64,000 bases of DNA from a bacterium. Its GTDB lineage: Bacteria > Cyanobacteriota > Sericytochromatia > S15B-MN24 > VGJW01. The stretch is taken from positions 7,392 to 71,391 of the forward strand of contig JAJXWQ010000001.1 in NCBI GenBank assembly GCA_021781555.1, in the 5' to 3' direction. This document shows, in pieces, positions 18,699 to 48,156 of the stretch (position 1 is the first letter of the stretch; every line of letters begins with the position of its first letter). The notes below the pieces were generated by a model. It was not told the DNA's origin. It saw only the letters and a list, made by a program, of their open reading frames with translations, and did no database searches. The position numbers and the translations under genes are program-made.

Positions 18699-21423
18699 GC
18701 AGCTCGCCGGCCCGGTTGGCCAGGCCCTGGCGGGGGGCGCGGCGAACAGCTCGAGGCCGCCGCAGGCCGCATGCGAGCAGGGCCGGGATCTCGCGTCGGA
18801 CTCGCGGCGCCTGGTAGGGCTTGATATCAGACCCTACCAGAGGCCGATCGGTGGCGGGATGCCGGTCGGTGAGCGGGTGGGCTTCGAGCTCGTTCTGGTG
18901 GATGATGCCGGCCGGATCGGCCTCGGCGAGGTCGCCCCGCTGGCGGGCTTTGGCTCGGAAGCCCTCGCCGACGCCGAGGTCGCTTTGGCCGCGGCCCGGC
19001 GCAGCCTCGAGAGCGACCGGCCGCCGGCCCCACGAGAGCTCGACGAGGTCGGCCCGCTGCTGGCCGCCCTGGGTCTCGACCGCGATCGCACGCCCGTGGC
19101 CTATGCGGGTCTCGAGCTCTGCCTGCTGGATCACCTGGCGCGCCGGGCGGGTCGGCCACTTGCCGAGCTGCTGGCGGACTGGCCTGGTAACGGCGACGCA
19201 GCTCGACCGACCGGGGGCCGCGCTGGCTCCTGCAAGCGCGAAGTTCCCGTCAACAGCGTCGTCTCGGGCACCGACCCCCACCAGGCGGCGGCCGCCGCCG
19301 GCGCGGCCCGGGCTCTGGGATACCGGACGCTCAAGGTCAAGGTCGGCGACCTCGAGCCTCGCGAGGCGGTGCGCCGGATCGCCGAGATCCGGCGGATCGT
19401 CGGGCCCGAGGTCCTGCTACGGGTCGACGCCGCCCGGGCCTGGCCGCCGACCGAAGCGCGCAGGACTCTCGCGGATCTGGCTGCGCTCGACGTCGAGTAT
19501 GTCGAGGAACCCGCCGCGGATCTCGGCTTTCTGCTGGACGCTCTCGGCCACCGTCCCGACGAGGCGCTGGCCCCGATCGCGGCCGATGAGAGCGCCTGCC
19601 CCTCCGCCCTGGCGTGGCGCTGCCTGGCGTCCAGGGTGCGGCCCTCGGTCTTCGTCCTCAAACCCCTGCTCTTCGGGGGCCTGCTCGAGGCCCGCAGCTT
19701 CGCGCTGGCGGCGCTGGCGGCAGGGGCGCGGGTCGTGGTGACCTCGGCCTTCGAGGGACCTGTCGGTCTGGCCGCGGCCGTCCACCTCGCGGCCTCCTTG
19801 CCGGGCGCACCCGTCGCCTGCGGGCTGGCGACGGCGCACCTGTCGTGCGCTGGCGAGTTCTTGCCGGCCTGGCTCGCGCCGTCGGGGGGAACGCTGACGC
19901 TCGGCGACGAGCCGGGCCTCGGGCTCTCGTTACCCCCGTTCGAGCGTGCAGCTTCGCTGTGGCCCGATCGCCCGGCGCTCGCCATCGACGCTGCCGGGCG
20001 GACCGCGGTGCTGACGCACGGCGAGCTGGCCGATCGCGTGCGGACGGCGGCCGGCCGCCTGGCAAGCCTGGGGGTGGAGCCGGGGAAGATCGTGGGGCTA
20101 CTGGGCGAGAACAGCCTCGGCTGGATCGTCGCCCACCTGGCCCTGCCGCTGCTGAAAGGCGCCAGCTTGCCCCTCAACTTTCGCCTGGCCGATGCCGAAC
20201 TCCGCTGGCAGCTCGAAGCCGCGGGGGCCATCGGCATCCTGTCCGACCAGCTGGACCGGCCGCTGGGCCAGACCGCAGTCTGGCCCCTGTCGGACCTCCT
20301 CGACGCCCCGGACCAGCCGGCTGCCGTTGCCTCGGCGGGCGACGCGGTCGCCACGGGCCGGCCAGGCCTGGTGTCAGCCTTCGATCCCGCGAGCCCGCAC
20401 ACGGTGATCTTCACCTCGGGCACCACCGGCAAGCCCAAAGGGGTGGTCCTCACCGCCGCGCAGCACCAGGCCAGCGCCCGCTCCCTGATCGCGCACCTCG
20501 ACCTGGACGCGGACGATCGGTGGCTGCTGTGCATGCCCGTGTTCCATGTCGGCGGCCTGGGGATCGTGCACCGGATGATCGCCTGCGGCGGCATGGCGAT
20601 CCTGCTCGAGCGGTTCGACGTGGCGCGCGTCGCGACGGCGATCGAACGCTGGCAGCCGACCCGCGTCAGTCTCACGGCCACGATGGCCCGGCGGTTGCTG
20701 GCCGCCCACCCCACGATCCTTGCCGGGGTGCGAACCGTCCTGCTCGGCGGCGAGGCCATCGGGGCCGATTTGCTGGAGGCGATCCCGCAGGCGATCGCCT
20801 CCTACGGCCTTTCGGAGGCCGGCTCGACGGTCGCGGTCGCGGCGCCGGGCGAAAGCGCACTGCATCCGCTGCCGGGCTTCGAGCTCCGGATCGCCGAGGA
20901 CGGGACAGCCTGCCAGCCTGCCGAGGTAGGTCGCGTCGCCATCCGAGGGCCCGCGCTGATGCGGGGCTATCTCGGCGCGACTCCCCTGGATGGGGGCTGG
21001 TTCGAGACGGGCGATCTCGGCGTGTTTCGTCCCGAGGGGGGCTTCTCGATCCTGGCCCGGCGGGAGGACCTCATCCTGTCGGGCGGGGAGAATGTCTATC
21101 CCGCCGAGATCGAGGCCGCGCTGCTCGACCACCCGGAGGTCATCGCCGCCGCGGTGGCAGGGATTCCCGACCCGCGCTGGGGCCAGGTTCCGGTCGCCGC
21201 GGTCGTGCTGCGCGCCAGGTTAGCCGAGGGCGCAGCCCGGGTCCCTTTGGCGCCGGATTCGCCCGCGCCGAGCCCCGAGGAGCTCTCGGCCTTCGTCGGC
21301 GAGCGCCTGGCGCGTTACAAGGTTCCCAGGCAGGTCCGATTCCTCGCCAGCCTTCCGACCCGGCCCTCCGGCAAGCTCGACCGCCGGGCCGTCGCCGCTC
21401 TGTTTTCGCAGGACCCCCGGTAG
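18688..21423 (+). CDS. menCE: apparent fusion of o-succinylbenzoate synthase (MenC, N-terminal, about 420 aa) and o-succinylbenzoate-CoA ligase (MenE, C-terminal, about 490 aa)
   Basis: N-terminal enolase-superfamily motifs (LKVKVGD, DVEYVEEP, IAADES, VLKPLLFGG). C-terminal AMP-binding motifs (FTSGTTGKPKGVVLT, MPVFHVGGLG, LSGGENVYPAEIE, PSGKLDRRA). Uninterrupted ORF with no in-frame ATG or GTG at the junction. Confidence 0.75.
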   Translation: MEPEQLAGPVGQALAGGAANSSRPPQAACEQGRDLASDSRRLVGLDIRPYQRPIGGGMPVGERVGFELVLVDDAGRIGLGEVAPLAGFGSEALADAEVALAAARRSLESDRPPAPRELDEVGPLLAALGLDRDRTPVAYAGLELCLLDHLARRAGRPLAELLADWPGNGDAARPTGGRAGSCKREVPVNSVVSGTDPHQAAAAAGAARALGYRTLKVKVGDLEPREAVRRIAEIRRIVGPEVLLRVDAARAWPPTEARRTLADLAALDVEYVEEPAADLGFLLDALGHRPDEALAPIAADESACPSALAWRCLASRVRPSVFVLKPLLFGGLLEARSFALAALAAGARVVVTSAFEGPVGLAAAVHLAASLPGAPVACGLATAHLSCAGEFLPAWLAPSGGTLTLGDEPGLGLSLPPFERAASLWPDRPALAIDAAGRTAVLTHGELADRVRTAAGRLASLGVEPGKIVGLLGENSLGWIVAHLALPLLKGASLPLNFRLADAELRWQLEAAGAIGILSDQLDRPLGQTAVWPLSDLLDAPDQPAAVASAGDAVATGRPGLVSAFDPASPHTVIFTSGTTGKPKGVVLTAAQHQASARSLIAHLDLDADDRWLLCMPVFHVGGLGIVHRMIACGGMAILLERFDVARVATAIERWQPTRVSLTATMARRLLAAHPTILAGVRTVLLGGEAIGADLLEAIPQAIASYGLSEAGSTVAVAAPGESALHPLPGFELRIAEDGTACQPAEVGRVAIRGPALMRGYLGATPLDGGWFETGDLGVFRPEGGFSILARREDLILSGGENVYPAEIEAALLDHPEVIAAAVAGIPDPRWGQVPVAAVVLRARLAEGAARVPLAPDSPAPSPEELSAFVGERLARYKVPRQVRFLASLPTRPSGKLDRRAVAALFSQDPR

Positions 21424-21479: not shown

Positions 21480-21545
21480 TGTCTTTTGCCGCTTGAACGG
21501 GCCGCGATTGACTCCTCGGGCCCGAACCCGTCCGACCGGGAGCAT
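21480..21545 (-). repeat. partial copy of the palindromic repeat element
   Basis: TTGAACGGGCCGCGATTGACTCCTCGGGCCCGAACCCGTC matches the CGGGCCCGAGGAGTCA arm of the family in reverse orientation. Confidence 0.55.
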
Positions 21546-21616
21546 CAGCGCAACGGACTCGACGCCTCGACCTGATTCCAGGTACCCTGGTCGCCACCCA
21601 CGAAGGAGGCAATCTC

Positions 21617-28799: not shown

Positions 28800-29180
28800 G
28801 TGCAGGACTTCGGCGCCTTCATCAAGTCCAAGCGCGAGGCCAGAAACTGGACCCTGCGCGAGGCGGCAGACCACATCGACATCTCGTCCAGCCGGCTGGC
28901 CGAGATCGAGCGCGGGGTCTCCTACCACACGGAAAGGCCGACACGGCCGACGCCGGACCTGGTCGAGCGTATCGCACGGGTTTACGACGTGCCGGTCGCT
29001 TATGCCCTGGCCGAGGCTGGCTACACGCCTCACAATGGACTACGGCTGGCACCGGATGCCGAGCTCCTGGTATCGCTGTTCGAGAGCCTGGATCGCGAAC
29101 GCAGGGAGCTGGCCCTCGACTTTCTCCGGCTGCTGCTGGAGCACGCGAGCCGATCGGCATCCGAGGCCGACCAGGGCTGA
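28800..29180 (+). CDS. XRE-family (Cro/C1-type HTH) transcriptional regulator
   Basis: 126 aa; GTG start after RBS GGAGGGAGGG; HTH (RNWTLREAADHIDISSSRLAEIERG). Confidence 0.75.
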   Translation: MQDFGAFIKSKREARNWTLREAADHIDISSSRLAEIERGVSYHTERPTRPTPDLVERIARVYDVPVAYALAEAGYTPHNGLRLAPDAELLVSLFESLDRERRELALDFLRLLLEHASRSASEADQG

Positions 29181-29252
29181 ACCCCGAACAGGCCGGCCCG
29201 CCGACACCTGGTAAAGGTCCGGCGGGCGAACGGGACGACCCGGGATCCCGGA

Positions 29253-30488
29253 TCAGTTGGTGGGCACGAGCTCCCGGATCCGGTTGTCGCCGAAATCGCT
29301 TACCACGACCCCGCTCCCGGACGCCACCAGGCCCAGGGGGTCCGCCAGCTGGGCTGCCAAAGCCGGCCCGCCATCGCCCGCGTTGCCTGACGATCCGGTC
29401 CCGGCGATGGTCCGGATCGTGCCTGCTGGCGAGATCGCCCGGATCTCCGAGTTCCCGGAATCGGCCACCAGCAGCGTTCCGTCTGGAAGCAGGGCCAGCG
29501 CGGCCGGGCCGTGCAGGTCAGCGTCGACCGCCGGACCGCCATCGCCGGCCGAGCCTGCGACGCCCGTTCCCGCCACCGTGTGGATGATCCCGCTCGGGTC
29601 GACCATCCGCACGCGCTGGGCGGCGAAGTCCGCGATGTAGACGTCGCCCTTGTTGTCTGGCAGGACCGCGATCGGTTGATCGAGCTCTGCCGACAGCGCG
29701 GGACCCTCATCGCCGATGCTCCCGGTGGCACCCGTCCCCGCGATGACCGTGAGCGTTCCCGAGGGGGCCAGGCGATCCACCCGCGCCCCGTTGAATTCGC
29801 ACAGGTACAGGTTCCCGGCCGCATCGTAGGCCAGGCCGGCCGGCCCCGCGAGAATCGATGCCGTCGCGACGCTCCCCGAGGCCACCGGCGTGAGCGTGCC
29901 TCCGCCCGCGATCGTCGTGACGATACCCTGCCCATCGACCTGGCGAACTCGGTCGTTGCCGTAGTCCGCGATGGCGACATCCCCGCCGGGAGCCGAGGCC
30001 ACATCGAAGGGATGATCGAACTGGGCGTCGATCGCCGGTCCACCATCGCCCGCAAAGCCGAAAGCACCGAAACCGGCGAAGGTCGACACGATTCCGGCGG
30101 GCGAGACCGCCCGGATCTTGTGGTTGCCATAGTCGGCGATCAGCACGCTCCCGTTGCCCGAAAGGGCCACGCCGGCGGGGGAATTGAACTCCGCCAGGAG
30201 CGCCGAACCGCCGTCGCCCGTGTTGCCGGCCGAACCGCTGGCGTCGCCAGCCAGCGCCAGGATCTGGTAGGCCGCCGGCGTCGGGACCGCGGTGGGCGCC
30301 GGGCTTGCGGTTCCGCCGGGCCTGGCGGTCGGCACCGGTGTGGGCGTCGGGGTGCCGCCCGAGATCTGCTGATCCGGCGGAAGGGAAGGGCCAGCGGTCG
30401 GATTCATGGGATCGAACGCTGCCGAGCATGCGACGAGCAGAAGGACCGGAACGATCCCGACGAGGGGCAGGAACAACGATCGCGTCAT
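29253..30488 (-). CDS. NHL-repeat beta-propeller lipoprotein
   Basis: Signal plus lipobox LLVACSA; PT-rich linker; six NHL-type repeats (e.g. SPAGVALSGNGSVLIADYGNHKIRAV). Confidence 0.75.
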   Translation of the reverse strand: MTRSLFLPLVGIVPVLLLVACSAAFDPMNPTAGPSLPPDQQISGGTPTPTPVPTARPGGTASPAPTAVPTPAAYQILALAGDASGSAGNTGDGGSALLAEFNSPAGVALSGNGSVLIADYGNHKIRAVSPAGIVSTFAGFGAFGFAGDGGPAIDAQFDHPFDVASAPGGDVAIADYGNDRVRQVDGQGIVTTIAGGGTLTPVASGSVATASILAGPAGLAYDAAGNLYLCEFNGARVDRLAPSGTLTVIAGTGATGSIGDEGPALSAELDQPIAVLPDNKGDVYIADFAAQRVRMVDPSGIIHTVAGTGVAGSAGDGGPAVDADLHGPAALALLPDGTLLVADSGNSEIRAISPAGTIRTIAGTGSSGNAGDGGPALAAQLADPLGLVASGSGVVVSDFGDNRIRELVPTN

Positions 30489-30616
30489 GGCAAGTGGGAG
30501 CCTCCGTTGCCAGATGCTGCGCTCCTGGCATCACGGGGGGATCACCCGCCGCTATCTTCCAGATTAATAGCCCTCAATGCCGCTTCATGACCTCACCGCC
30601 GCCAGCCCCCAGGCTA

Positions 30617-30720
30617 GGGTGCTCCCGGTTTGAATGGATCGAGCCCGATGAGTCAAACGGGGCCCGGTTGCGCAGCGAAGCGACCGCGCAGAGGGCCCCG
30701 TTCAAACTGCAAAAGGCCTA
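30617..30720 (+). repeat. palindromic intergenic repeat element, full copy (best reference copy)
   Basis: About 100 bp is near-identical to 11519-11618; it abuts the stop codon of the S8 peptidase gene. Confidence 0.8.
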
Positions 30721-31890
30721 GGGTAGCTTGGACAGGTCGAGTCGACCGATGCGCAAGGTCGGATCCGAGAGGCTCACGACCGGATCGGTGGCGCTTTCCA
30801 GGGCATCGATGATCCTGGGCGCGGTCCAGCTCGGATGCTCGGCACGCAGAATGGCGGCAGCGCCCGAAACGAACGGAGCGGCCATCGACGTGCCAGTGTC
30901 GGACCCATACTCGTCGTCGGGCAAGGTCGAAAGGATCGCATCTCCCGGAGCCGCGATGCCGACCTGCGGGCCCCGATTGGAGTACACGGCCAGGGTGTTG
31001 GCCTGGGTGGTCGCCGCCACGGCGAGCAGGCCAGGCGTGTTGGCCGGCTGCGTGACCGCACCTCCGTCGTTGCCCGCAGCGGCCACGACGACGACGTTCC
31101 TGGACACGGCGTAAGCGATGGCCCGCTGGTAGGCGCTGCTGAGGGACGTGGCCTCGGAGTTGAAGGACATGTTGATGACCTGCGCGCCGTTGTTCACCGC
31201 GTAGACGATGCCCTCGAGCGCCTCCTCGTCGTCTCCGCCTTGCTTGTCCAGGACCTTGACGGAGAGCAACTGGCACTGCCAGCAGACCCCGGCGACTCCG
31301 ATGCCGTTGTTACCCGCCGCGCCGATGATGCCCGCTACGTGGGTCCCATGACCATCCGTATCCTCGCTGTCGGTGCGGCCGGTCAGCGCGTTGAGGCCCA
31401 ACAGGAGGCGTCCGGCAAACTCCGGATGGTAAGGATCGACGCCGGTATCGAGGACGGCCACCCGCACGTGCGAGGCGTCGATGTTCCGCTGCCACAGCGG
31501 ATCCGGGTCGAGGTACGTCGCGCCGAGGGCCCACTGCAACCACAAATCCGGATCGTTCGGCCAGGCCGAGGGGCGCTGGACCGAGTCCGGCTGGACCCAG
31601 CTCACATCCGGTTGCAGCCGCAGGGCTGTCTCAACGGCACGGACGGACGCCGCGGTCGGCAGCTGGTAGAAGCCGACCGGATCTCCCATGAAGAGAGTCT
31701 TGGTCTGCGTCAGGGCGGTCCGCCCCGCCTGCAGGAGCTTGGGCGGCGACCCGGCCTTGAACCCGACCATGAGATTCCGGGCGACCGCCGGTGCTGCCGG
31801 GAAGGGTGCGGCGGCGGGCACCTTGGCCAGGCAGCCGGCCACGGTGCCCGCCAGCACCACGGCAAAGGTCCAGTGGAAGCGCTTGCCCAT
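30718..31890 (-). CDS. S8 family serine peptidase (subtilase), secreted lipoprotein
   Basis: Asp/His/Ser triad motifs VAVLDTGVD, HGTHVAGIIGA, GTSMAAPFVSGAAAIL; signal plus lipobox VAGCLA. Confidence 0.88.
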   Translation of the reverse strand: MGKRFHWTFAVVLAGTVAGCLAKVPAAAPFPAAPAVARNLMVGFKAGSPPKLLQAGRTALTQTKTLFMGDPVGFYQLPTAASVRAVETALRLQPDVSWVQPDSVQRPSAWPNDPDLWLQWALGATYLDPDPLWQRNIDASHVRVAVLDTGVDPYHPEFAGRLLLGLNALTGRTDSEDTDGHGTHVAGIIGAAGNNGIGVAGVCWQCQLLSVKVLDKQGGDDEEALEGIVYAVNNGAQVINMSFNSEATSLSSAYQRAIAYAVSRNVVVVAAAGNDGGAVTQPANTPGLLAVAATTQANTLAVYSNRGPQVGIAAPGDAILSTLPDDEYGSDTGTSMAAPFVSGAAAILRAEHPSWTAPRIIDALESATDPVVSLSDPTLRIGRLDLSKLP

Positions 31891-32194
31891 GCTTTCCGGC
31901 CTCCCCCACCATCTTCAACCGGATCTCAACCGCTAGACGACCGCGGGCCGGCCAAGATCCGTCGGCCGATCAGGTCTTGGGAAAGGGAGCGGGGGCCCGG
32001 CTTGGTGGGCAGATAATTAAATTAGGATTAAATTTGGCGGATACTTTGTTTAACCGGCGCAACGTGGCGCCCACATCCGGCGAACATTACCAAAGGATAA
32101 TCGCGCCTTAACCATCACACGAAGTTCCCATCCGGCGTCCACCGTCGCGCCAGCGACAGGTCAGCGGGACCGGGTGCCTGCGGAGGATCCCCCG
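31891..32194. promoter_or_regulatory. AT-rich divergent intergenic region with direct repeat ATTAAATT(n5)ATTAAATT
   Basis: GCAGATAATTAAATTAGGATTAAATTTGGCGGATACTTTGTTTAACC is the most AT-rich stretch of the window, between the divergent S8 peptidase and GH1 genes. Confidence 0.4.
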
Positions 32195-33571
32195 ATGCAC
32201 AAGACCCTCGCCATCACGCTCGCCACGGCGATCCTCGCCGGCTGCGGTGCGATGACGGGTTCGGATGGCAATGGCCTGTCCGGCGCGTCCACCCTGCTCG
32301 CCGCGGCCAGTGCCGGCAACGGCTTCATGTGGGGGGTATCGACCGCAGGGGAGCAGTACGAGGGCGGCGACACGACCAGCCAGTGGCCGGCGTTCGAACT
32401 CGCCGGCAAGACCTCCGAACCGTCGGGCATGGCTGCCGACGGCCTCGCCTATTACAACAGCGACGCAGGGCTGGCGCAGGGGATGGGGCTGAACGGGTTC
32501 CGGACCAGCATCGAGTGGAGCCGGATCGAACCCCGGCCGGGATACTTCGATCCCGCGGGCGTGGCCTACTACCACCGCTTCTTCGCTAGCCTGCGCGCCC
32601 ACGGACTCACGCCCGTCGTCACCCTGATGCACTTCACCTATCCCCAGTGGCTGGACACCCAGTACGGAGGGTGGGCCAACGCGCAGTCGGTCGACCAGTT
32701 CGCCCAGTACGTCGACTTCGTGTCGAAGGAGTACCGCAACGACGTGTCGTGGTGGCTCACCTTCAACGAGCCCAACGTGTTCGTGCCGGGCGCCTACCTG
32801 ACCGGCAACCTCGCACCCGGCCATCACAACCCCATCGAGGCCGCCGAGGTGGCCCTGCACTTCGTGGAGGCGCACGAGCGCGCCTACACGATCATCCACC
32901 AGAACGAACCCGGCGCCCACGTTTCGTTCAACGAATACACCGCGTCCTATGCCATCGGATCGCCTCACGCGACACTTCCGACCCCGTCCAGCGGAATCAA
33001 CCTCAACGACTCGGACTGGATGCTGCACGCCCTCGCCCCGGCGCCGCAGCCGGGCGGCACGATCAACCCCCAGAGCCTGAACCTCCACTACCTGGACTAC
33101 GTGGCGATCGACTACTACTGCAAGTGGCAATTGTCGATCCCCTTCAAGTTCCAGATGGCGTGGAAATGGAACATCTATCCCCAGGGCTTCTACAACGTCC
33201 TCGAGAACTATCACCGCTGGTTCGGATTGCCGATCCTGGTAGCCGAGAATGGCCTGGCAACGCGAGATCTGGCGCCGCGTTCCGACGGCTGGACGCGTTC
33301 GTCCTTCATCGTCGCCCACGTCCAGGAGATGCAAAAGGCCATGGCCAACGGCGTGCCCGTACTGGGCTACTTCGTCTGGTCGATCACGGATAACTGGGAG
33401 TGGGGATCCTTCTCGCCGCGCTTCGGCCTCTACTCGGTCGACTGCCGGGATCACGACTTCCGGAGGATTCCCACGCGTTCGGTCGGCGTGTACCGTCAGA
33501 TCGCGACCCAGGGCGGCGTGACCCCCGCTCTCGAACAGGAGTATCCGCCGCCGCCCGGCACCCAGCTCTGA
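32195..33571 (+). CDS. glycoside hydrolase family 1 (beta-glucosidase-like), secreted lipoprotein
   Basis: Lipobox ILAGCGA; GH1 acid/base motif LTFNEPN and nucleophile motif VAENGLA; FVWSITDNWEW. Confidence 0.85.
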   Translation: MHKTLAITLATAILAGCGAMTGSDGNGLSGASTLLAAASAGNGFMWGVSTAGEQYEGGDTTSQWPAFELAGKTSEPSGMAADGLAYYNSDAGLAQGMGLNGFRTSIEWSRIEPRPGYFDPAGVAYYHRFFASLRAHGLTPVVTLMHFTYPQWLDTQYGGWANAQSVDQFAQYVDFVSKEYRNDVSWWLTFNEPNVFVPGAYLTGNLAPGHHNPIEAAEVALHFVEAHERAYTIIHQNEPGAHVSFNEYTASYAIGSPHATLPTPSSGINLNDSDWMLHALAPAPQPGGTINPQSLNLHYLDYVAIDYYCKWQLSIPFKFQMAWKWNIYPQGFYNVLENYHRWFGLPILVAENGLATRDLAPRSDGWTRSSFIVAHVQEMQKAMANGVPVLGYFVWSITDNWEWGSFSPRFGLYSVDCRDHDFRRIPTRSVGVYRQIATQGGVTPALEQEYPPPPGTQL

Positions 33572-33611
33572 CGCCGCTACCTGCCAATCCACCGGTCCGC
33601 GCGGTCTTCGG

Positions 33612-33641
33612 TTCCGCCAGGCTGAGCGAGTCCGGTATAAT
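33612..33641 (+). promoter_or_regulatory. candidate sigma70 -10 box (TATAAT) upstream of gcvT
   Basis: TCCGGTATAATGAGG is 45 bp upstream of the gcvT ATG; the -35 is weak (TTCCGC). Confidence 0.35.
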
Positions 33642-33682
33642 GAGGCGTTATCCCCAATTTCATATTTCATCGGGGCGCAAAG

Positions 33683-34783
33683 ATGGCAGGTACAGCTTTG
33701 ATGCAGCTCAGGCGCACGCCTCTCTATGATCGGCACGTTTCGCTCGGGGCCCGGATGGTTCCCTTCGGGGGCTGGGACATGCCCGTGCAGTACAGCTCGA
33801 TCGTGGCCGAGCACAAGGCCGTCCGGGAGAACGTCGGGCTCTTCGACGTCTCGCACATGGGCGAGTTCCTCGTCAGCGGGCCCGGTGCCGCCGAGTTCCT
33901 GGCAAGCGTCGTTCCGGCCAATGTCCTGGAGCTTGCGGTCGGACGGGTCGTCTACACGCAGTTCACCAACGCGAGCGGCGGCGTCGTCGACGACCTGCTG
34001 ATCTACCGCCTCGCCGACCACTATCTCCTGGTCGTCAACGCGTCCAACATCGCCAAGGACTGGGCGCATCTCGAGCCCCTCCTTCCGGCCACGGGCGTCA
34101 TGATGACCGATGCCTCCGATCGCACGGCCTTGCTGGCGCTGCAGGGTCCCGAGGCGGCAGCTGTCCTGGCGCAGTGCGCCACCCCCGATCCCCGTTTGCT
34201 GCCTGCGTTTTCGGTCCAGCAAGGCCAGGTGCTCGGCGCCGACGCCGTGGTCTCGCGCACGGGCTACACGGGCGAAGACGGTTTCGAGATCTTCGTGCCC
34301 ACCGAGGACGCAGGCCGCGTCTGGGAGGGCCTGCTGGCCCTCGGCGCGACGCCATGTGGTTTGGGTGCCCGTGACACGCTCCGCCTCGAGGCCGGCTTGC
34401 CGCTGTATGGTCATGAGTGGGACGACACCACGACGCCGGTGGAGGCCAGCCTGGCGTGGACGGTCAAATCCAGCACCGAGTACCTCGGCAGAGCCGAGAT
34501 CGATCGCCAGCTCGCCCACGGCACCCGGCGCCGCTTGCTGGGGCTCAAGATGATCGGCCGGGCACCAGCCCGCGAGGGGTACGAGGTGTTTCGCGACGGC
34601 CAGCCGATCGGCAAGGTGTGCTCCGGCACGCTCGCCCCGAGCCTCGGCTATCCCATCGCCACCGCCTACCTTCCCGCGGACGTATCGGTCGGCCAGAGGG
34701 TCCAGGTCAAGATCCGCGAACAGATGGCCGAGGCCGAGACGGTTCGATTGCCCTTCTACCGCAGACCCAAGCGATCCTCCTGA
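33683..34783 (+). CDS. gcvT: glycine cleavage system aminomethyltransferase GcvT
   Basis: GcvT N-terminus ([26 protein letters not shown]...[10 protein letters not shown]). Alternative start at 33701. Confidence 0.9.
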
Positions 34784-34879
34784 AGCCCCGCGCCGCCGGG
34801 ATTCCGCTGTAAACTTCCCCGTCTTGTCCCGCGTCATCCCTGGCAGCTCCGCTGCCCTGGCCCACAAGGAAGCCTCCCC

Positions 34880-35260
34880 GTGAACGATATGAACCTGAAA
34901 TTCTCCAAGAGCCACGAGTACGTCCGCATCGAGAACCGGCTCGCCGTCATCGGTATCAGCCAGCACGCCGCCGATCAGATGGGAGACGTCGTGTACGTGG
35001 AGCTGCCGCAGATCGGCAAGGCCTACAGCAAGGACGAGGAATTCGGTGTGGTGGAGTCCGTGAAGGCGGTGTCGAGCCTCTATTCTCCGGTTTCCGGAAC
35101 CGTCTCTGCCGTCAACGCGGAGCTGCTCGAGCATCCCGAGTGGGTGAACTCGGATCCCTACGGCAAGGGCTGGATGCTCAAACTCGAGATGACGAGCCCC
35201 ACGGAACTCGACCAGATCCTGTCCCAGGAACAGTACGATGCCGAGGTCAGCAGCCACTGA
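34880..35260 (+). CDS. gcvH: glycine cleavage system H protein (lipoyl carrier)
   Basis: 126 aa; lipoyl-lysine motif VESVKAVSSLYSPVSG. Confidence 0.92.
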   Translation: MNDMNLKFSKSHEYVRIENRLAVIGISQHAADQMGDVVYVELPQIGKAYSKDEEFGVVESVKAVSSLYSPVSGTVSAVNAELLEHPEWVNSDPYGKGWMLKLEMTSPTELDQILSQEQYDAEVSSH

Positions 35261-36669
35261 TGTCCTTCAACTACCTGCCCCTCACCGACGCCCAGCGTCG
35301 CGACATGCTGTCGGCGATCGGGGTCTCGGGAATGGAAGACCTCTTCGCCCCCATTCCCCGGGAGCTCCGCGGATTCGAGCTGGCGCTGCCGTCGGGCCAT
35401 AGCGAGCTGGAGGTGCAGCAGCAGTTGAACCGGCTCGCGGCGCAGAATCGCCCGCTGTCGGCGCAGCGGAGCTTCGTCGGGGCTGGGGCCACCCTGCGCT
35501 TCCGGCCCAGCGCCGTCGACCACGTGGCGTCGCGGTCCGAGTTCTCCACCGCCTATACGCCGTACCAGCCGGAGATCAGCCAGGGGACCCTGCAGGTCAT
35601 CTACGAGTTCCAGTCCATGATCGCCGAACTCACGGGCATGGACGTGGCCAACGCCTCGATGTACGACGGCGCCAGCGCTGCGGCCGAGGCCGCGCTCATG
35701 GCCTGCCGGATCACCCATCGCCACCGGATTCTCGTCAGCGAGACCGTCCACCCCGAGTACGCCGAGGTGGTCCGGACCTATGCCAGCGGACCGGAAGTCG
35801 CCGTGGAAACCGTACCCCACCGCGACGGAGCGCTGGACCTCGAGGCCGTCGAGCGCCTGCTCGGGCAAGATTGCGCGGGCCTCCTGGTGCAGGTCCCCAA
35901 CGTGTTCGGCTGCCTGGAAGCCGTCCGGGCTGCCGGCCAGCTGGCCCGCAAGGCCGGCGCGCTGTTCGTGGTGATCGCCGACCCGATCAGCCTGGCACTG
36001 CTCGAGGCCCCGGGCGCCTATGGCGCCGACATCGTCGTCGGCGACGGGCAGGGTCTCGGCAACCCGGTCTCTTTCGGGGGACCTCACCTCGGCTTCATGG
36101 CCACCCGCCAGGAGCACGTTCGCCAGCTCCCGGGCCGCATCTGCGGCATGAGCGTGGACACCCGCGGCAAGCCCTGCTTCACGCTGACGCTGCAGGCCCG
36201 CGAGCAGCATATCCGGCGTGAGAAAGCCGCCAGCAACATCTGCAGCAACCAGGCGCTAAACGCCCTGGTCGCGACGCTGTACCTGGCCCTGGTGGGCAAG
36301 ACGGGCCTGGTAGAGCTTGCCAGCGTCAGCGTCCAGCGAGCCCATCACCTCGCCGATCGCCTGGTCGGCATGGCCGGTCTGGAGCTCGCGTTCCCATCCC
36401 AGCGCTTCTTCAACGAGTTCGTCCTGCGCGCCGATCGCCCCGCCGATCGCGTGCTCGCCGAGCTGGCCGATCGCGGTATCCTCGGCGGCGTGCCGTTGTC
36501 CCGCTGGTACGCCGGCTCGGAGCGGGATCTCCTGGTGACCGTCACCGAGACCAACTCACCCGAGGATCTCGACGCCTACCTCGCGGCGCTCTCGGCCAGC
36601 AGGCGCTCCTCGGCGCAGGAACGCTCCGTCGAAGTTCCCGCGACCGCCGTCGACCACGCCACCGTCTGA
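35260..36669 (+). CDS. gcvPA: glycine dehydrogenase (decarboxylating) subunit 1
   Basis: Internal ATG overlapping the gcvH stop (TGATG); N-terminal P-protein half ([11 protein letters not shown]). Confidence 0.88.
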
Positions 36670-36694
36670 ACCCTCCATCCAAGGGGTAGATTCC

Positions 36695-38155
36695 ATGCCG
36701 ACCTTGATCTTCGACCAATCCATACCCGGGCGCCGCGGCGTCACGATTCCAGCTTCCGGCGTGCCCGAGCGCGATCTCCTCGAGCTCCTGGGCCCCGAGC
36801 TCCTGCGCCAGAGTCCCCCCGAGCTTCCCGAGCAATCCGAGCTCGAGGTCGTACGTCACTACACCCGCCTCTCCCAGCTCAACCACAGCATCGACACGGG
36901 CTTCTATCCCCTTGGTTCGTGCACGATGAAGTACAACCCCAAGGTCAACGAGGCGGTCGCCCGGCTGCCCGGATTCGCGGACCTGCATCCCTATCAGCCC
37001 GCCGAGCAAGTGCAGGGTGCTCTCGCCCTGATGTACGATCTGCAGTCCTGGCTCGGGGCACTCACCGGCCTTCCCCACGTGTGCTTGCAACCGGCCGCCG
37101 GCGCGCACGGGGAGCTTACCGGCATCTTGATGATCAAGCACTACCACCGGCACCACGGCAACCGGCGCACCAAGGTTCTCGTCCCGGACTCGGCCCACGG
37201 CACCAATCCCGCCACGGCGGCGATGGCCGGCTTCGAGGTGGTGACGGTCCAGAGCAACGAGCGGGGGCTGGTCTCGGTAGCCGACCTCAAGGCCCATCTC
37301 GACGACCAGGTGGCGGCGTTCATGCTGACCAATCCCAATACCCTCGGGCTCTTCGAAGAAGACATCCTGGCCATCAGCCAGGCGGTACACGAGGCCGGGG
37401 CGCTGCTCTACTACGACGGCGCCAACTTCAATGCCATCCTCGGGGCCGTTCGGCCGGGCGACATGGGCTTCGACGTCGTGCACCAGAACCTTCACAAGAC
37501 CTTCTCCACCCCGCACGGCGGCGGCGGCCCCGGATCCGGTCCGGTGGCGGTCTCGGAGCGCCTGGCCCCCTTCCTCCCGGTGCCGGCGATCGTCCGCCGC
37601 CCGGACGGCAGCTATGCGCTGGATTTCGAGCGGCCCCTGGCCATCGGGCGGATGAAGGCGTTCTTCGGCAACTTCGGGGTGCTGGCGCGGGCCTATGCTT
37701 ACATCTACGCGCACGGACACGAGGGCCTCCGGCAGGTGAGCCGGGATGCGGTCCTCAGCGCCAACTACCTGAAGGCGCGCCTCGGCGACGCCTACGAGGT
37801 GCCCTTCGCGCAGTCGTGCATGCACGAGTTCGTGATGACGAGCGATCGCCAGAAGGCCCAAGGGGTCAACACCCTTTCGATCGCCAAACGGTTGATCGAC
37901 TTCGGGATCCACCCACCGACGATCTACTTCCCGCTGATCGTCCACGAGGCGATGATGGTCGAACCCACCGAGACCGAGAGCAAAGAGGAGCTCGACCGCT
38001 TCGTCGAGGTCATGCTGCAGATCGCCGACGAGGTCCGGGACACCCCTGACCTGGTCAACAGCGCGCCGCACACGGCGCCGATCGGCCGCGTCGACGAAGT
38101 CCTGGCGGCGCGCAAGCCCAACGTCCGCTGGCGCAAGCCCCAGACCGCCCGATAG
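36695..38155 (+). CDS. gcvPB: glycine dehydrogenase (decarboxylating) subunit 2
   Basis: 486 aa; PLP-lysine region ([16 protein letters not shown]); C-terminal P-protein half. Confidence 0.9.
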
Positions 38156-38170
38156 AAGGCTCGCGCCAGG

Positions 38171-38226
38171 GTCCTCCCGGTTTGAATGGAGCGAGCCCGA
38201 GGAGTCAAACGGGGCCCGTTGCCCCC
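38171..38226 (+). repeat. partial copy of the palindromic repeat element (left arm)
   Basis: CCCGGTTTGAATGGAGCGAGCCCGAGGAGTCAAACGGGGCCC lies between convergent gcvPB and the MerR gene. Confidence 0.7.
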
Positions 38227-38233
38227 CAGAGCT

Positions 38234-39151
38234 CTATCCGTGCTCCCAGAATCGCCACCACGGCCGGCGGCGGCGGGCATCGGCCTGGATGGCGTCCACC
38301 AGCGTTTCGAGCAACCCCTCCTCGTCCCGAGTCGGGGCCTCCTCGCGGGTGGCCACCGCGGCTTCGAGCTCGAGCATGCGCCATTGCAACCCGCGGATCT
38401 GCTCGTTCTCGTGCGATCGGGCCCGGGCTGCCAGTTCCTCGGCAAGGTCTTGTAGCTTTTCGCGCAAAGTTGCAATCACCGACTCCTCGCCGTCAGAATC
38501 GGACTTTGCCTTGATCTCGGCCTCCAGCACGGACAGCCGTCCTTGCACGGCCTCGATCTCGGCCTCGAGTTCGGCGCTGACCGCCTCCTGGTTCGCGGCA
38601 TCCAGGCCCGCGTCCTCGGCAGCGGGGCCGTCCTTGCGGTCCTGGACCTCGGCAGCCAGGGCCTCCACGTACGCCTGGAGCTCGCGCAGCTCTTGACCCT
38701 GCTGGCTCTCGATGGCGGCCAGCTGCAGGGCCAGCTGGGCGACCCTCGGATCGGGCTCCTTGGGGGCCTCGAGCAAGAGCCGGACCTGCTCGTGGGCCAG
38801 CGCCATCCGCTGGCTATCGCCCAGGAGCTGGTTGAGCAGCGTTTGCTGCGCCTTGACCACCCGCTCGAGCTCATCCTGGCGGGCCACCAGGGCCGCGATA
38901 ACGTCCTCGACGGCCGGCCTGGCCTCATCGAGCGCGTTCTGGGTGAGGGTAAGCTGCTGACGAATATCCTCTATGGGGACATTCTGCTCCCGAAAGGAGC
39001 GAATGATCCGCAGATTCTCGAGGTCGCGTTCGGTGAGGAGTCGCTGGCCGCCCTTCGTCCGTGCGAAGCGCAGATCGAACTGCTTTTCGTAGTGCCGGAC
39101 GGAAGACGCCGAGATTCCCAACCGCGCGGCAGCTTCAGCCACCGTGAGCAT
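38234..39151 (-). CDS. MerR-family transcriptional regulator with about 230-aa coiled-coil C-terminal extension
   Basis: N-terminal MerR HTH (MLTVAEAAARLGISASSVRHYEKQFDL), then a long heptad/EA-rich helix. Start set at an internal ATG; the ORF is open to 39385. Confidence 0.7.
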   Translation of the reverse strand: MLTVAEAAARLGISASSVRHYEKQFDLRFARTKGGQRLLTERDLENLRIIRSFREQNVPIEDIRQQLTLTQNALDEARPAVEDVIAALVARQDELERVVKAQQTLLNQLLGDSQRMALAHEQVRLLLEAPKEPDPRVAQLALQLAAIESQQGQELRELQAYVEALAAEVQDRKDGPAAEDAGLDAANQEAVSAELEAEIEAVQGRLSVLEAEIKAKSDSDGEESVIATLREKLQDLAEELAARARSHENEQIRGLQWRMLELEAAVATREEAPTRDEEGLLETLVDAIQADARRRRPWWRFWEHG

Positions 39152-39261
39152 ATCCAAAATGCTAGCACAGAGGCGAAGCGCCCGCGCAGAGAGACCCGTG
39201 CAAACCGAGAACCGTACAAAGCTTTCGCCCGCTCCCTCACGGGTGCTACGATCCCGTCCAG

Positions 39262-40158
39262 ATGCGCCTGATCCTCGATCCCCCGGCCTCTGGCCGGGTG
39301 AACATGGCCCTCGACGAAGCGTTGCTCGAGTCCGTCGCCCGGGGGCTCGTGCCACCGACCCTGCGCCTGTATAGCTTCGATCCACCGGCGCTCACCCTGG
39401 GGCGCGCCCAGCCCCTGGCGGACGTTGCGCTCGCGGCCTGCGCGGATGCCGGCGTCGACGTCGTGCGCCGACCGACCGGCGGCCGGGCCGTCCTTCACGA
39501 TCGCGACCTGACTTACTGCGTGGTCCTGCCGATCGCGCCTGACGAGACGATCGGGGACTCGTATGGCCGCCTGTCGCAAGCCATCGCCCGGGCCCTGTCG
39601 AGTCTCGGGATGCCCGCAGCGATCGTTCCGGGTTCCCTCGATCGGACCCGGAGCCAGGCGACCCACCGGCAGCCCACGGCCGCGCGGCGCCCGGGCGAAA
39701 CGCGGGAGCGACCGGCAAACTGTTTCGCGGTCTCGACCGTCGCCGATCTCGTGGTGGACGGGCGCAAGATCGTGGGCTCGGCCCAGGTCCGCCGGCACGG
39801 GTTCTTGCTGCAGCATGGCTCGATCCGCCTGGCGCCGGGTGTCGTCCCGATCGAAGGCCTGCTGTCCGGCCGGCCGCCAGGCCGGGCCACGAGCGGAGCA
39901 CCGCGGTCGGTCCCGGATCCGAGCGCTGGTCCGGGGTTCTGCGCAAGACCCGAAGGCCTCGCGCTCGGATCCCGGCAGCCCCTTTCGATCGCCGAGGCCC
40001 TCGGCCTGCGCGACCCGGATGAGGAATGGCTCGCGGCGACCCGCGCCAGCCTGTCTCGAGCCATCGTTGCCGCACTGGAGGTCGCCTGGATTCCGGCCCG
40101 ATGGACGGACCCCGAGCGCAACCTCGCCCGGGTGCTGGCCTCCCGCGCCACCCCTTGA
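39262..40158 (+). CDS. lipoate-protein ligase / octanoyltransferase family protein (LipM/LplJ-like BPL_LPL catalytic domain)
   Basis: N-terminal NMALDEALLE motif as in LipM/LplJ; catalytic lysine context DGRKIVGSAQVRR; low-complexity insertion. Confidence 0.7.
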   Translation: MRLILDPPASGRVNMALDEALLESVARGLVPPTLRLYSFDPPALTLGRAQPLADVALAACADAGVDVVRRPTGGRAVLHDRDLTYCVVLPIAPDETIGDSYGRLSQAIARALSSLGMPAAIVPGSLDRTRSQATHRQPTAARRPGETRERPANCFAVSTVADLVVDGRKIVGSAQVRRHGFLLQHGSIRLAPGVVPIEGLLSGRPPGRATSGAPRSVPDPSAGPGFCARPEGLALGSRQPLSIAEALGLRDPDEEWLAATRASLSRAIVAALEVAWIPARWTDPERNLARVLASRATP

Positions 40159-40190
40159 TCGCTCGCACGAGGCGCCGCCAGGGGCGGTGG

Positions 40191-40247
40191 GATCCGTTTG
40201 AAGCTGGAACGGTTCCCTCTGCGCGGTCGCTGCGCTGCGCAACCGTT
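40191..40247 (-). repeat. partial copy of the palindromic repeat element (loop and right arm), reverse orientation
   Basis: CTGCGCGGTCGCTGCGCTGCGCAACCG matches the family loop; it lies between convergent genes and abuts the tonB-like stop. Confidence 0.65.
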
Positions 40248-41039
40248 CTAGCGCAGGACGAAGCGCATCTTGACCTCGCCCATCTGGACGACCGGCGGCT
40301 GGCCGGGCGGCAGCGGGCTGAAGCGCCAGCGCGAGAAGGCCCGGGCGGCGGCCGCATCCACGTCGGGGTCGCCCGACGACTGCAAGATCTGGACTCCTGC
40401 CACCCGTCCATCGGGACCGACGCGCAGGGCAGCCGTGACAGTCCCGCGCCAGCCAACCGCATGCCGCCCCTCGGCCGAACGCGGAAAATCTGCCCGCATC
40501 AGGCTCAAGATCGCCCGTCCGGCGAGATCGCCCGAAGCCCCGCTGCCGACCGACACGGCGCCGCCAGAGACCGGCGCCGTGGCCTTGCCGGTGCCGGCCG
40601 CGGCCCCCTGCGGCGACCCGGCGGCGCTGGCCGCCTCGGCCAGCTGGCGGTCCATGCGCTCTTGGCGAGCCTCCTCGGCCGCCAGGCGCTGGGCGTTCGG
40701 CTGCGGCGGGGTCTCGACATGGGGCGCCACCGGCCGGCGCTCCCGGGGCACGCGAGCAACGTGGCGCTCCAACGGACGCGGCTCGGCCACGGCCTTGGGC
40801 CGGTAGATCCGGCGGGCATGTGCATGCACCAGGGACTTGGGAGCCGGGCGATCGTGGCCGATTGCGCGATCGCCGGCAGGTCCCCCGAGGTCGATCGTCG
40901 TCAACTCGATCGGGATCACGCGCGGCGCCTCTGGCCTGTGCAGCGGCAGGAGCCAGAGGATCATCGCCAGGATCCAGACGTGAATCGCGATCGACGTGGC
41001 CCAGGCCTCGCGTTCCATGCGCGTGGCCGACGCTGGCAT
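40248..41039 (-). CDS. TonB C-terminal domain (energy transducer TonB family) protein
   Basis: N-terminal TM (IAIHVWILAMILWLL), Pro/Ala-rich spacer, TonB_C motif (GTVTAALRVGPDGRVAGVQILQSSGDPDVDAAAARAFSRWRFSP). Confidence 0.75.
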   Translation of the reverse strand: MPASATRMEREAWATSIAIHVWILAMILWLLPLHRPEAPRVIPIELTTIDLGGPAGDRAIGHDRPAPKSLVHAHARRIYRPKAVAEPRPLERHVARVPRERRPVAPHVETPPQPNAQRLAAEEARQERMDRQLAEAASAAGSPQGAAAGTGKATAPVSGGAVSVGSGASGDLAGRAILSLMRADFPRSAEGRHAVGWRGTVTAALRVGPDGRVAGVQILQSSGDPDVDAAAARAFSRWRFSPLPPGQPPVVQMGEVKMRFVLR

Positions 41040-42835
41040 CAGAACGTCACCTCGAGACCACCCGAGACCAGGGCCGGGGTGGCGAAGTAGCCCGGGGCGG
41101 GCTCCTGCAAGGCGAGCACGTGCCAGTCGTTGCCCGAACAGTAGAGCTTCCAGCCCGGGGCGATCTCGTAGCCTACATCCCAGCTGGCCAGCCAGGCCAT
41201 GCCCGCGGCCGAACCGCCGGGCGCCTGAGTCGGGCCCAGCTGGGCGTACTCCAGCGAGGTACCCACCGAGGCCGTGAGCTTACCGCCCAGCCAGGAGCTC
41301 TCGTGCCGGGTGCCGATGGATTCGAGGATCTGACCCAATGCGGTGGCATCCTGGACCTTGATGTCGAAATGCTGGACGAAGCCATCGCCGAAGAGGTACT
41401 GGGCTCCGGCCCGCACCTGGTAGACCCCCTGCCAGCTCGCGAAGTTCCTGGGCTGCCACAAACCCTGGCCCGCCTGGCCGTAGTAGATGAAATCGAGGAC
41501 ATCGCCGTAGCGGAACGAAGCATCGCCATAAAGCTTGTCGCTGAACCTGTGACCCGCGCCGATCTCGGCCTCCGGCTGGGTACGCTCGGGCCGCAAGCTG
41601 CCGTTGCCCTCGACCTGGAGGCGATCGAGGTAAAGCCTGGAGAAGCCTGGCAGATCCGTGGTGGTGCGGGCAGCCAGCCAGAGTTTCGTCGGTGATTCCC
41701 GCAGCAGGCCCCCGGCGTGGAGTCCAGCTCCCCCGCCCGGCAAGAAGCTGACCTTGACTGCGGGGTCCAGATAGCCGACCTGCCCGAGGGTGGTCGCAGC
41801 CAGACCGTAATCGAGTCGCCACCGTGGATCCAGGCTCCACGTATCCTGCGCCCCGATTTCGGCATGCGGCGCAGACCAGCCTGGGGTGCCGGTTTCGGAC
41901 GTCCCCTGCTGGCCGACCAGGAGATCGAGCTTCAGCGCGTGGGCTCGCCATGCGAGCTTGGGGGCATAAGAGGCGTCCACCGCCAGGTCGTAGAGCCAGG
42001 TCTCGTCCGAAGAGCTCAAGGCGGGGCCGCCCTGCACATCGGCCCGGATGTCGCCAACCTGGACGTGGCCCAGATCGACGCCAAGGCCCAGAGACAGCCG
42101 ATGGCGATCCCACCGGGCCCGTGCGCTGCCGCCCTCCTGGAGCGTGGCCTGCGTGCCGGGTGTTTCCTGATCCCTCCGGTAGGACAGGTCTGCCCAGTTG
42201 GTCGGCCCCCACGACAAGCGCTCGTTCGCCTTCACCACGGACCATCGGTCGAGGCCGTTGGCAAAGGCTCGGAGGTCGGTCAAGGAGAGCGCCGACCCGA
42301 TCACGCGTCCGTGGGCAAAACCGAAGTCATAGCGCAGCATCCCCGGCTCCGGCACGCCCCCGAGATCGCCCCAGATCGCCGTGTATGGCTCGCGATCGGC
42401 AGCCGCCGGGATATGCGCTGGCGGGCCGGGCGGCGCCGGCACGGCCAGCTGCATGTGAGCGAGGAAATCATTGGTGGCCCGGGCCAGAGCCGGGGGAGGC
42501 AAGGCCATCAGCTCGGCATCCGTCCCCGGGGTCAGCTTGCTCCCCCGGCGCGCCTCGGGATGCTGCTGGTGCCCGATCACCGTGATCGCGGGAAGCTCGA
42601 CCGGGAGTTTCTCGGCCGGCAGCAGGCCGAGGCTCGTCGGGTCGGTGGCCGGCAGCACCAGCGTCCCCGGACGAGTCGAGCCAGAAGCCGAGGATGTGGC
42701 CGCGGGGCTCGTCGTAAGGGCGCCTGGCAACGCGGTGCTTGCCAGCGGCCGAGCCAGTGCGGGGGAAGCCATGACGCCCAGGAGCACCGGCAGTATCACC
42801 GCCAGGGTGCTGTCGAGACGACCCGGTCCGGTCAT
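41039..42835 (-). CDS. predicted outer-membrane beta-barrel protein (hypothetical)
   Basis: Signal peptide (MTGPGRLDSTLAVILPVLLGVMASPALA); alternating amphipathic beta-strand pattern; C-terminal aromatic residue (…GGLEVTF). Stop overlaps the tonB-like start. ORF is open (GTG) to 42970. Confidence 0.55.
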   Translation of the reverse strand: MTGPGRLDSTLAVILPVLLGVMASPALARPLASTALPGALTTSPAATSSASGSTRPGTLVLPATDPTSLGLLPAEKLPVELPAITVIGHQQHPEARRGSKLTPGTDAELMALPPPALARATNDFLAHMQLAVPAPPGPPAHIPAAADREPYTAIWGDLGGVPEPGMLRYDFGFAHGRVIGSALSLTDLRAFANGLDRWSVVKANERLSWGPTNWADLSYRRDQETPGTQATLQEGGSARARWDRHRLSLGLGVDLGHVQVGDIRADVQGGPALSSSDETWLYDLAVDASYAPKLAWRAHALKLDLLVGQQGTSETGTPGWSAPHAEIGAQDTWSLDPRWRLDYGLAATTLGQVGYLDPAVKVSFLPGGGAGLHAGGLLRESPTKLWLAARTTTDLPGFSRLYLDRLQVEGNGSLRPERTQPEAEIGAGHRFSDKLYGDASFRYGDVLDFIYYGQAGQGLWQPRNFASWQGVYQVRAGAQYLFGDGFVQHFDIKVQDATALGQILESIGTRHESSWLGGKLTASVGTSLEYAQLGPTQAPGGSAAGMAWLASWDVGYEIAPGWKLYCSGNDWHVLALQEPAPGYFATPALVSGGLEVTF

Positions 42836-45861: not shown

Positions 45862-46000
45862 GGGGCCATTGTAGGCCGCGCACCCGACCCTAGCAAGCCG
45901 CTCCGTACCCTTGCCTCGGCTTTCCGTTCCAGCCTCCGGGCCTTGCCCGCGGGAGCGTGCCACCGCCTCTTCGGTCCTCCCTCCCGCCCTTCCACGGCCG

Positions 46001-46026
46001 CAGCCCCCGGGTGAACCCGGGGGCTG
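46001..46026 (-). terminator. GC-rich hairpin downstream of rplL (candidate terminator, no U-tract)
   Basis: CAGCCCCCGGG-TGAA-CCCGGGGGCTG forms a perfect 11-bp stem 45 bp after the rplL stop. Confidence 0.4.
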
Positions 46027-46069
46027 GCAGGCCGAAAGAAAGTGCGGTAGCGGAATCGCAGAGAACCGA

Positions 46070-46459: not shown

Positions 46460-46527
46460 TTGGAAATACTCCTATTTCAAGCGGATGTTCTTGGTCTGGG
46501 GTAGGCTGCGGCGTCAGGCCGCAGCAC

Positions 46528-48032: not shown

Positions 48033-48156
48033 CGTAAATCTCCTGTGGTAGATAGCGGCCCCGGCAACCGATCCCGGACCTCGTCCGGGACCAGAGCTTA
48101 CGAGCCTTCCACTGAACGCGGACGCCGGCATGGCGGTCCGCAGCGTTGACCTCGGG

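Follow-up and report, generated by a model that had tools for sequence, protein, structure and literature searches.

A dense family of GC-rich palindromic repeats at gene ends in a Sericytochromatia-like bacterium

Results

Repeat copies and their gene neighborhoods

The window, by which we mean the whole 64,000-nt stretch of DNA analyzed (67% GC), contains a real and dense family of approximately 100-bp GC-rich palindromic non-coding repeats, located at or near stop codons. Their neighbors are housekeeping genes, encoding a MarR-family regulator, UbiE/MenG, a polyprenyl synthase, a MenC-MenE fusion, an isochorismatase and an S8 peptidase, as well as an NHL protein, GcvPB, a MerR-family regulator, LplA, TonB and AdoMetDC. 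The core CGAGCCCGAKGAGTCAAACGGGGCCC was matched six times in the window at ≤3 mismatches, compared with no match in 100 dinucleotide shuffles, and searches with profile HMMs built from an alignment of all copies yielded an inventory of nine sites. A first-pass annotation of this DNA had listed six sites, all of which are present near the positions it gave, but the window in fact holds nine; the first-pass list lacked a module-2 variant at 12409-12474 on the minus strand and a module-2 relic at 39173-39211 on the plus strand.

The copies are composed of two modules and a tail (described later). Unit A, a complete copy of 101 nt (module 1, module 2, and tail), occupies 11518-11618 on the plus strand; the TAG to its left (11515-11517) is the stop codon of the MarR-family gene, and the next TAG to its right is at 11623-11625. 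With the latter begins copy A2 (11623-11674, plus strand), in which TAG is followed by a diverged module 1 that has a UUCCGG-UUCG-CCGGAA hairpin as its left part. The TGA stop codon of UbiE/MenG (11661-11663, minus strand) sits within the conserved GAGTCA of copy A2. Copy B (12409-12474, minus strand), a diverged module 2 with tail that includes GCGATCGC, lies in the gap between the polyprenyl synthase stop and the UbiE start. In the gap between the MenC-MenE stop and the isochorismatase start is copy C (21483-21547), a module 1 variant fused straight to the tail, with the inner module-2 hairpin missing; it is on the minus strand, which corrects the orientation first assigned to it.

The copy on which attention originally centered, unit D, is likewise complete at 101 nt (30618-30718, plus strand). 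It is flanked by CTAG at 30614-30617 and 30718-30721, and the right CTAG includes the stop codon of the S8 peptidase gene (CTA, 30718-30720, minus strand). Copy E (38167-38218, plus strand), which is module 1 only, is found in the convergent gap between the GcvPB and MerR-family genes, while copy H (39173-39211, plus strand; a weak match, nhmmer E = 0.003) is a truncated 3' half of module 2 with tail in the divergent MerR/LplA intergenic region. Copy F (40192-40249, minus strand) consists of module 2 and tail only and lies in the convergent LplA/TonB gap, where it is abutted by the TonB stop codon (CTA, 40248-40250). Finally, array G (51692-51896, minus strand) comprises a module 1 variant and then 2.3 tandem module-2 units that are 99% identical and have a 70-nt period; it separates a radical-SAM-like gene (stop at 51907-51909) from the canonical terminator of the AdoMetDC gene, and reaches 51896 rather than ending at 51877 as first annotated.

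All sites are extragenic or overlap a stop codon only. According to an approximate gene map of the window, repeats occupy four of six convergent junctions versus four of 44 other junctions (Fisher p = 0.004). Copies B, C, and D lie between co-directional genes, and copy H, together with copy L9c in locus L009, is a truncated relic in a divergent promoter region. Relative to the upstream gene the element is mostly in the sense orientation; D and C are antisense. The original description of the sites as lying at gene 3' ends, on or next to stop codons, therefore holds, but not all of them are convergent: the 30.6-kb site is bounded by the stop of the S8 peptidase gene and the start of the NHL gene, two minus-strand genes, and the 21.5-kb site by the plus-strand MenC-MenE and isochorismatase genes. 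The original description had also attributed spurious peptides to these repeats, and gene callers do read ORFs through the elements. For instance, in L009 (6132-6196), the called BioY ORF crosses a partial element to a CTAG that is common with the convergent Dtd stop. This read-through and the UbiE stop within copy A2 indicate that elements can supply C-terminal codons or stop codons.

Other sequence features were observed alongside the repeats. The octamer GCGATCGC, which is the HIP1 palindrome known from cyanobacteria, occurs 16 times in the window (e.g., at 10526, 12440, 13800, 22231, 37842, and 61607), as against 6.4 +/- 2.0 (maximum 11) in dinucleotide shuffles, and eight times in the 20.6 kb of locus L006, for which base composition predicts approximately 0.8; the HIP1 octamer is modestly over-represented in this Sericytochromatia-like genome. 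MenC-like (enolase superfamily) and MenE-like (AMP-binding) sequences are fused in one 911-aa ORF (18688-21423, plus strand), in a neighborhood of menaquinone genes with UbiE/MenG and the polyprenyl synthase. A perfect 24-nt tandem repeat, CTGCTGCTGCTGGTTTGGATCCCA, present in approximately five copies (58511-58657, minus strand), lies within an ORF (57242-58834) encoding a 530-aa Roadblock/LC7-domain protein, where it specifies a repeated Q/W/D/P/N-rich octapeptide. GC skew of the window was uninformative on replication direction.

Distribution in the species and its relatives

The same-species DNA examined amounts to ~103 kb, i.e., the window plus 39 kb that was reached via window proteins and a repeat-derived ORF (a six-frame peptide query that matched a single protein, P0121, and led to locus L006). 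HMM searches of these 39 kb revealed seven additional sites: three in L006 (20.6 kb), three in the 9.6 kb to the right of the window, and one array in the 8.9 kb to its left. The family thus continues beyond the copies first noted, with 16 sites in ~103 kb, or about one per 6.4 kb; extrapolation from this sample gives several hundred copies per genome.

Three independent same-species assemblies, which are 99.9% identical overall, contain the elements in identical form, and so the repeats are not assembly artefacts. Among these three, themselves 99.9% identical, no presence/absence polymorphism was found. The window GcvPB is identical to P0122, encoded on an NCBI contig of 117,495 nt, and differs from P0001 (GCA_027325145.1, ENA assemblies) at one residue. 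Three contig ends lie within elements (the start of L002, the end of L007, and the start of L011). Moreover, the NCBI MAG contig L012 and the ENA contigs L013 and L014 do not differ until the tail of an element array (L012 3796-3958), after which they diverge, as expected for a high-copy repeat. Beyond this array, Hexapep and polysaccharide genes are found in L012, and glyoxalase and OPT genes in L013 and L014; the split stems from a real rearrangement or from contigs joined chimerically at the repeat.

The nearest relatives, whose GcvPB proteins are 73-81% identical, are Candidatus Sericytochromatia or Cyanobacteria MAGs where they are named, and it is on this similarity that the taxonomic placement of the organism rests. 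No copy of the family was detected in ~63 kb of their DNA (L003, L004, L005, and L008; nhmmer E < 1), and L003-L005 likewise lack any dispersed intergenic repeat family. Synteny with the window was seen in L005 and L004 (73-75% amino-acid identity), where the syntenic junctions contain no element. In these two relatives the GcvPB/MerR junction is 31 nt versus 78 nt in the window, LplA and TonB overlap versus a gap of 89 nt, and the S8/NHL junction is 150 nt versus 229 nt. Absence of the element from orthologous junctions in relatives indicates that the flanking genes do not need it.

Scans of JGI metagenomes with the module 1 core and the module 2 core returned no matches, a scan of viral contigs gave none to the family, and blastn searches of plasmid and phage collections found no match. 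Neither a transposase nor a RAYT (Y1_Tnp) gene was present among the Pfam-scanned window ORFs and the gene tables of the flanking loci (~103 kb).

Modular structure of the repeat

The first-pass annotation had described a left arm, a loop, and a right arm. This layout understates the complexity of the family, in which two separable modules and a tail form mosaics and occur alone, together, or in tandem. Module 1 is ~50 nt and module 2 ~60 nt in length. Module 1 starts with (T/C)TAG-(G/A/C)GTGCTCCCGG, has a variable left part, and contains the conserved core GGGCCC-GAGGAGTCAAAC-GGGGCCC; its 3' end, TCGGGCCC-GAGGAGTCAAAC-GGGGCCC, is the best-conserved piece of the family, even in diverged copies. 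The left part of a diverged module 1 is instead some other small hairpin, such as UUCCGG-UUCG-CCGGAA (A2), CGCUUU-GGCUCG-AAAGCG (L6c), or CCCG-N6-CGGG (C). Module 2 is a strong hairpin, GGGGCCC-GG-TTGCGCAGCG(A/C)AGCGACCGCGCAG-AG-GGGCCCC, followed by the tail GTTCAAACTGCAAAAGGCC. Both modules are found together in A, D, L6a, L6c, and L9a, a partial or single module in E, C, A2, F, B, and H, and module 1 with a repeated module 2 in array G and at L012 3796-3958; partial and mosaic sites make up more than half of the total.

Five copies (A, D, L6a, L6c, and L9a) have a complete unit of exactly 101 nt, although their mutual identity ranges from 81 to 98%, which argues for a discrete element with defined ends. 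Four copies (A, D, L9a, and L6a) constitute a young subfamily that is 88-98% identical, and older diverged copies coexist with it. Identity between the 11.5-kb and 30.6-kb copies is 98% over 105 nt by repeat search and 99% over 101 nt by blastn, in agreement with the value of about 98% noted at the outset. Such near-identical copies point to recent spread of the repeat family, and the initial reading of a dispersed, recently spread MITE/REP-like family is upheld on this evidence.

The unit begins with GGTGCTCC and ends with AAAAGGCC, which have only the terminal GG in common. Direct inspection of the sequences gave no convincing terminal inverted repeats at the ends of complete units; a subterminal 10-nt inverted repeat, GTTTGAAYGG (9/10), is present 10-11 nt inside each end. 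GAGTC, a GANTC site, is invariant in all module 1 copies, including the most diverged (e.g., at 11552-11556, 30652-30656, and 38204-38208), and sits in the 13-nt loop between the GGGCCC half-sites, beside a Shine-Dalgarno-like GAGGAG.

Folding, terminator, and RNA analyses

The predicted folding energy of the full element is -48.6 kcal/mol (z -1.9) for the plus strand and -50.5 kcal/mol (z -3.2) for the minus strand. Copies that comprise only module 1 do not fold better than shuffled sequences (z -0.8 to +0.5). Consequently, of the original statement that every copy folds into a long GC hairpin, what remains is that module-2 copies fold strongly, whereas those with only module 1 match their shuffles. 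The original description had also suggested that the repeats behave as bidirectional terminators. No copy has a T tract after the hairpin on either strand, and scans with an intrinsic-terminator consensus (29000-41500 and 45500-53000) called no element; in the absence of T tracts and of a terminator signature in the elements, the suggestion is unsupported. The same scans do make a call at 51654-51676, within a canonical terminator downstream of the AdoMetDC gene (51654-51685, plus strand), abutting array G, with a 10-bp GC stem followed by TTTTTTTATT, which indicates that the organism uses classical terminators.

With Rfam at the gathering threshold, only a tRNA was identified in the window, and at E values up to 10 the best match to the element was a chance miRNA hit (16 bits versus a threshold of 84). 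For module 2, RNAalifold gave a better consensus on the reverse strand, on which the inner stem contains invariant G-U pairs, and a weaker one on the forward strand; compensatory change was limited to two or three pairs. In module 1, the core stem of L9b and L9c retains wobble pairing despite C-to-T changes, which favor the strand opposite to that of module 2. As the strand hints of the two modules disagree, they provide no consistent evidence for a functional RNA strand.

Other identities considered for the element were rejected. A hammerhead-like reading of CCGATGAGTC...AAAC failed because, by eye, the would-be CUGAUGA box varies between copies (GAT/GAG/GGG). Integron attC sites were dismissed, as there are no RYYYAAC/GTTRRRY core sites and the neighbors are housekeeping genes, not cassettes. 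A UAG recoding or read-through signal was discarded, given that copies occur in both orientations and as fragments, and that the read-through frame has no defined end.

TAG flanks and stop codons

In D, L9a, and L6c, the 101-nt unit is immediately bordered by TAG at its left and right ends. Unit A has TAG on the left and its right TAG 4 nt past the unit end, and L6a has TAA at both ends. In three copies the match between flanks extends to CTAG/CTAG or CTAA/CTAA. NTAG is found directly 5' of the left hairpin in eight of 13 module-1 copies, mostly as CTAG and as GTAG in L6c; GTAG is also present upstream of copy B. In the genome sample, TAG accounts for 0.32% of positions, and CTAG is depleted ~7-fold (29 observed versus ~194 predicted by base composition). 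A TAG stop codon is contained in many of the CTAGs that remain, and four are located at element boundaries.

The gene upstream ends with the left TAG in the case of MarR (A), CheD (L6c), Der (L9a), Dtd (L9b), and a GAF histidine kinase (L012). Other ends are abutted by stops as well, namely the TonB TAG at F and the S8 stop in the right CTAG of D. The C-termini of TonB and S8 end at the same residue as those of their orthologues, so that insertion left these proteins unaltered. Enrichment of TAG stops beside elements was not significant (7/11 versus 12/36, p = 0.076). To the right of D, L9a, and A, the flanks run on for 3-5 nt as a unit does at its left end and are similar to its first 6-8 nt, and thus the right TAG could be the stump of a head-to-tail neighbor and not a target-site duplication.

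Discussion

Comparison with known repeat families

The family is a previously undescribed one of an ordinary kind, that is, MITE/REP-like selfish DNA. IS630 and IS5-type elements target CTAG or YTAR, and bacterial MITEs with TA- or CTAG-type targets include the Correia elements of Neisseria and IS630-type MITEs. The BOX elements of Streptococcus pneumoniae are modular, with the arrangement boxA-(boxB)n-boxC. Like BOX, the present repeats have a left module, variable tandem internal modules (module 2, once to 2.3 times; G and L012), and a right tail, but they are unrelated to it in sequence, host, and base composition, and TAG flanks are not reported for BOX. Rho-independent terminators also place a stable GC hairpin just past the stop codon; the family differs from them in having no U/T tract.

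Comparison with MITEs is closer. The element is short, non-coding, and dispersed (101 nt, 16 sites in ~103 kb, crossed by spurious ORFs only), and resembles MITEs in being a multi-copy intergenic sequence of ~100 bp with a long hairpin, assembly breaks, short direct repeats at both ends, and an apparent TA-containing palindromic target. It differs from them in having hardly any terminal inverted repeat and no known parent insertion sequence, and in its many partial or mosaic copies. The consensus target reported for IS481 is NCTAGN (PMC3053399), and PMC10969869 cites MITEs of cyanobacteria, among them Nezha.

REPs are G+C-rich stem-loops present in hundreds of copies, which form BIME clusters, show a bias towards convergent genes, and affect mRNA stability; the GTAG motif of SMAG elements and the RAYT hypothesis have been described in the same context (PMC3184786). 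With REP/BIME families such as SMAG of Stenotrophomonas and the REPINs of Pseudomonas, the repeats have in common dense, GC-rich, imperfect extragenic palindromes in 3' untranslated regions, often at convergent gene ends and in mosaic or tandem clusters, with what may be a corresponding short conserved motif (here NTAG) 5' of the hairpin. They differ in their unrelated sequence, in a fixed-end 101-nt unit as opposed to one of 20-40 nt, in the direct TAG repeats, in a tetranucleotide that is mostly CTAG and not GTAG, and in that ~103 kb contain no RAYT. We file the repeats as a new family of small non-autonomous palindromic repeats, in the first place MITE-like, which we judge probable, and in the second REP/BIME-like, which we judge unlikely.

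Alternative explanations

The main alternative is that these are extragenic palindromes of the REP/BIME type, spread by a RAYT (an HUH Y1 transposase), in which NTAG corresponds to the GTAG motif of REPs and clusters of different motifs would produce mosaics, as in BIMEs. Much of the structural evidence is compatible with such a family: the elements are GC-rich imperfect palindromes, all extragenic; their preference for convergent genes (p = 0.004) is a bias reported for REPs (PMC3184786); NTAG precedes the left hairpin in eight of 13 module-1 copies, with GTAG in L6c; the architecture is mosaic and tandem, with copies in both orientations; the left hairpin in A2, C, and L6c differs in sequence yet keeps its hairpin potential; and a majority of partial or mosaic sites (over half) is more typical of REP/BIME families than of MITEs. 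We nonetheless consider this origin doubtful, as the unit has a fixed length of 101 nt with discrete ends, unlike a REP of 20-40 nt (a single hairpin is of REP size but does not constitute the fixed-end repeating unit), the flanking TAGs are direct and not inverted as they would be in a REPIN doublet, the commonest tetranucleotide is CTAG rather than GTAG, and no Y1_Tnp gene was found in ~103 kb, a small part of the genome.

Functions for the host were also considered. That the repeat is a functional RNA or 3'-end element, acting in termination, mRNA stabilisation, or as a small RNA, with the loop GAGGAGUCAAAC as a candidate functional site, would accord with (i) the position of copies at gene 3' ends, (ii) the very stable module-2 hairpin, (iii) the core GGGCCC-N13-GGGGCCC, which is best conserved even in diverged copies, and (iv) the core-stem wobble pairs kept by the C-to-T changes in L9b and L9c and the invariant G-U pairs of the inner module-2 stem, confined to one strand. 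We regard this role as improbable, because a T tract or terminator signature is absent, Rfam gives no match, copies are either sense or antisense to the upstream gene (antisense in D and C), two relics are in divergent promoter regions, module-1-only copies fold no better than shuffles, compensatory changes affect only two or three pairs with strand hints that conflict between the modules, and the family is absent from orthologous junctions in relatives. Any effect on transcripts, e.g., a stable 3' hairpin that could act as an exonuclease barrier or weak pause site, would be secondary and would differ from classical intrinsic termination. The stronger conservation of the core than of its flanks, and the GGGCCC-N13-GGGCCC symmetry around a GAGTC that is invariant in all module-1 copies, might alternatively mean that the repeats carry binding sites for a host DNA-binding protein (a nucleoid, gyrase/IHF-like, or methylase-linked factor), and for BIMEs, binding of IHF, gyrase, and Pol I is documented (PMC3184786). 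To this we attach little credence: the core is missing from module-2-only copies, the family is absent in relatives, and such binding would be compatible with a selfish mobile origin rather than an alternative to it.

A probable non-autonomous mobile element

On balance, we think the family probably represents lineage-specific, non-autonomous mobile DNA made of GC-rich nested palindromes, inserting at (C)TAG and duplicating TAG. A transposase whose gene lies elsewhere in the genome would act on the 101-nt unit in trans, and the unit would insert at (C)TAR with duplication of TAG. Since TAG is barred in frame inside genes and CTAG is depleted, the targets that are tolerated would largely be TAG stop codons. 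Duplication of TAG would regenerate the stop codon of the target gene, which would explain why copies start exactly at stops and why protein C-termini are unchanged. After insertion, decay and recombination may have produced the module-1-only and module-2-only pieces, the swapped left hairpins, and the tandem module-2 arrays. A more specific proposal, that the element is a stop-codon-homing MITE that prefers amber stops and rebuilds them, is tentative; we see it as possible, though short of probable. As the element has hairpins and not terminal inverted repeats, the mobilising enzyme of such a MITE need not be a classical DDE transposase that binds such repeats. If the proposal is true, homing to stop codons would let the element saturate gene 3' ends (~1 per 6 kb) without damage to proteins, and would do so in a basal non-photosynthetic cyanobacterial lineage, the Sericytochromatia.

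The repeat family leaves existing categories unchallenged. It does have practical consequences: short-read metagenome assemblies from this lineage are broken up, and may be wrongly joined, at the elements, which also give rise to spurious ORFs and extended gene calls, with stop codons being supplied or overlapped by the repeats (UbiE, BioY). For the organism, an uncultured Sericytochromatia-like bacterium, the family signifies a recent lineage-specific burst of selfish DNA and, provided that TAG is indeed the target, an example of mobile DNA that uses stop codons as places where it can insert safely.
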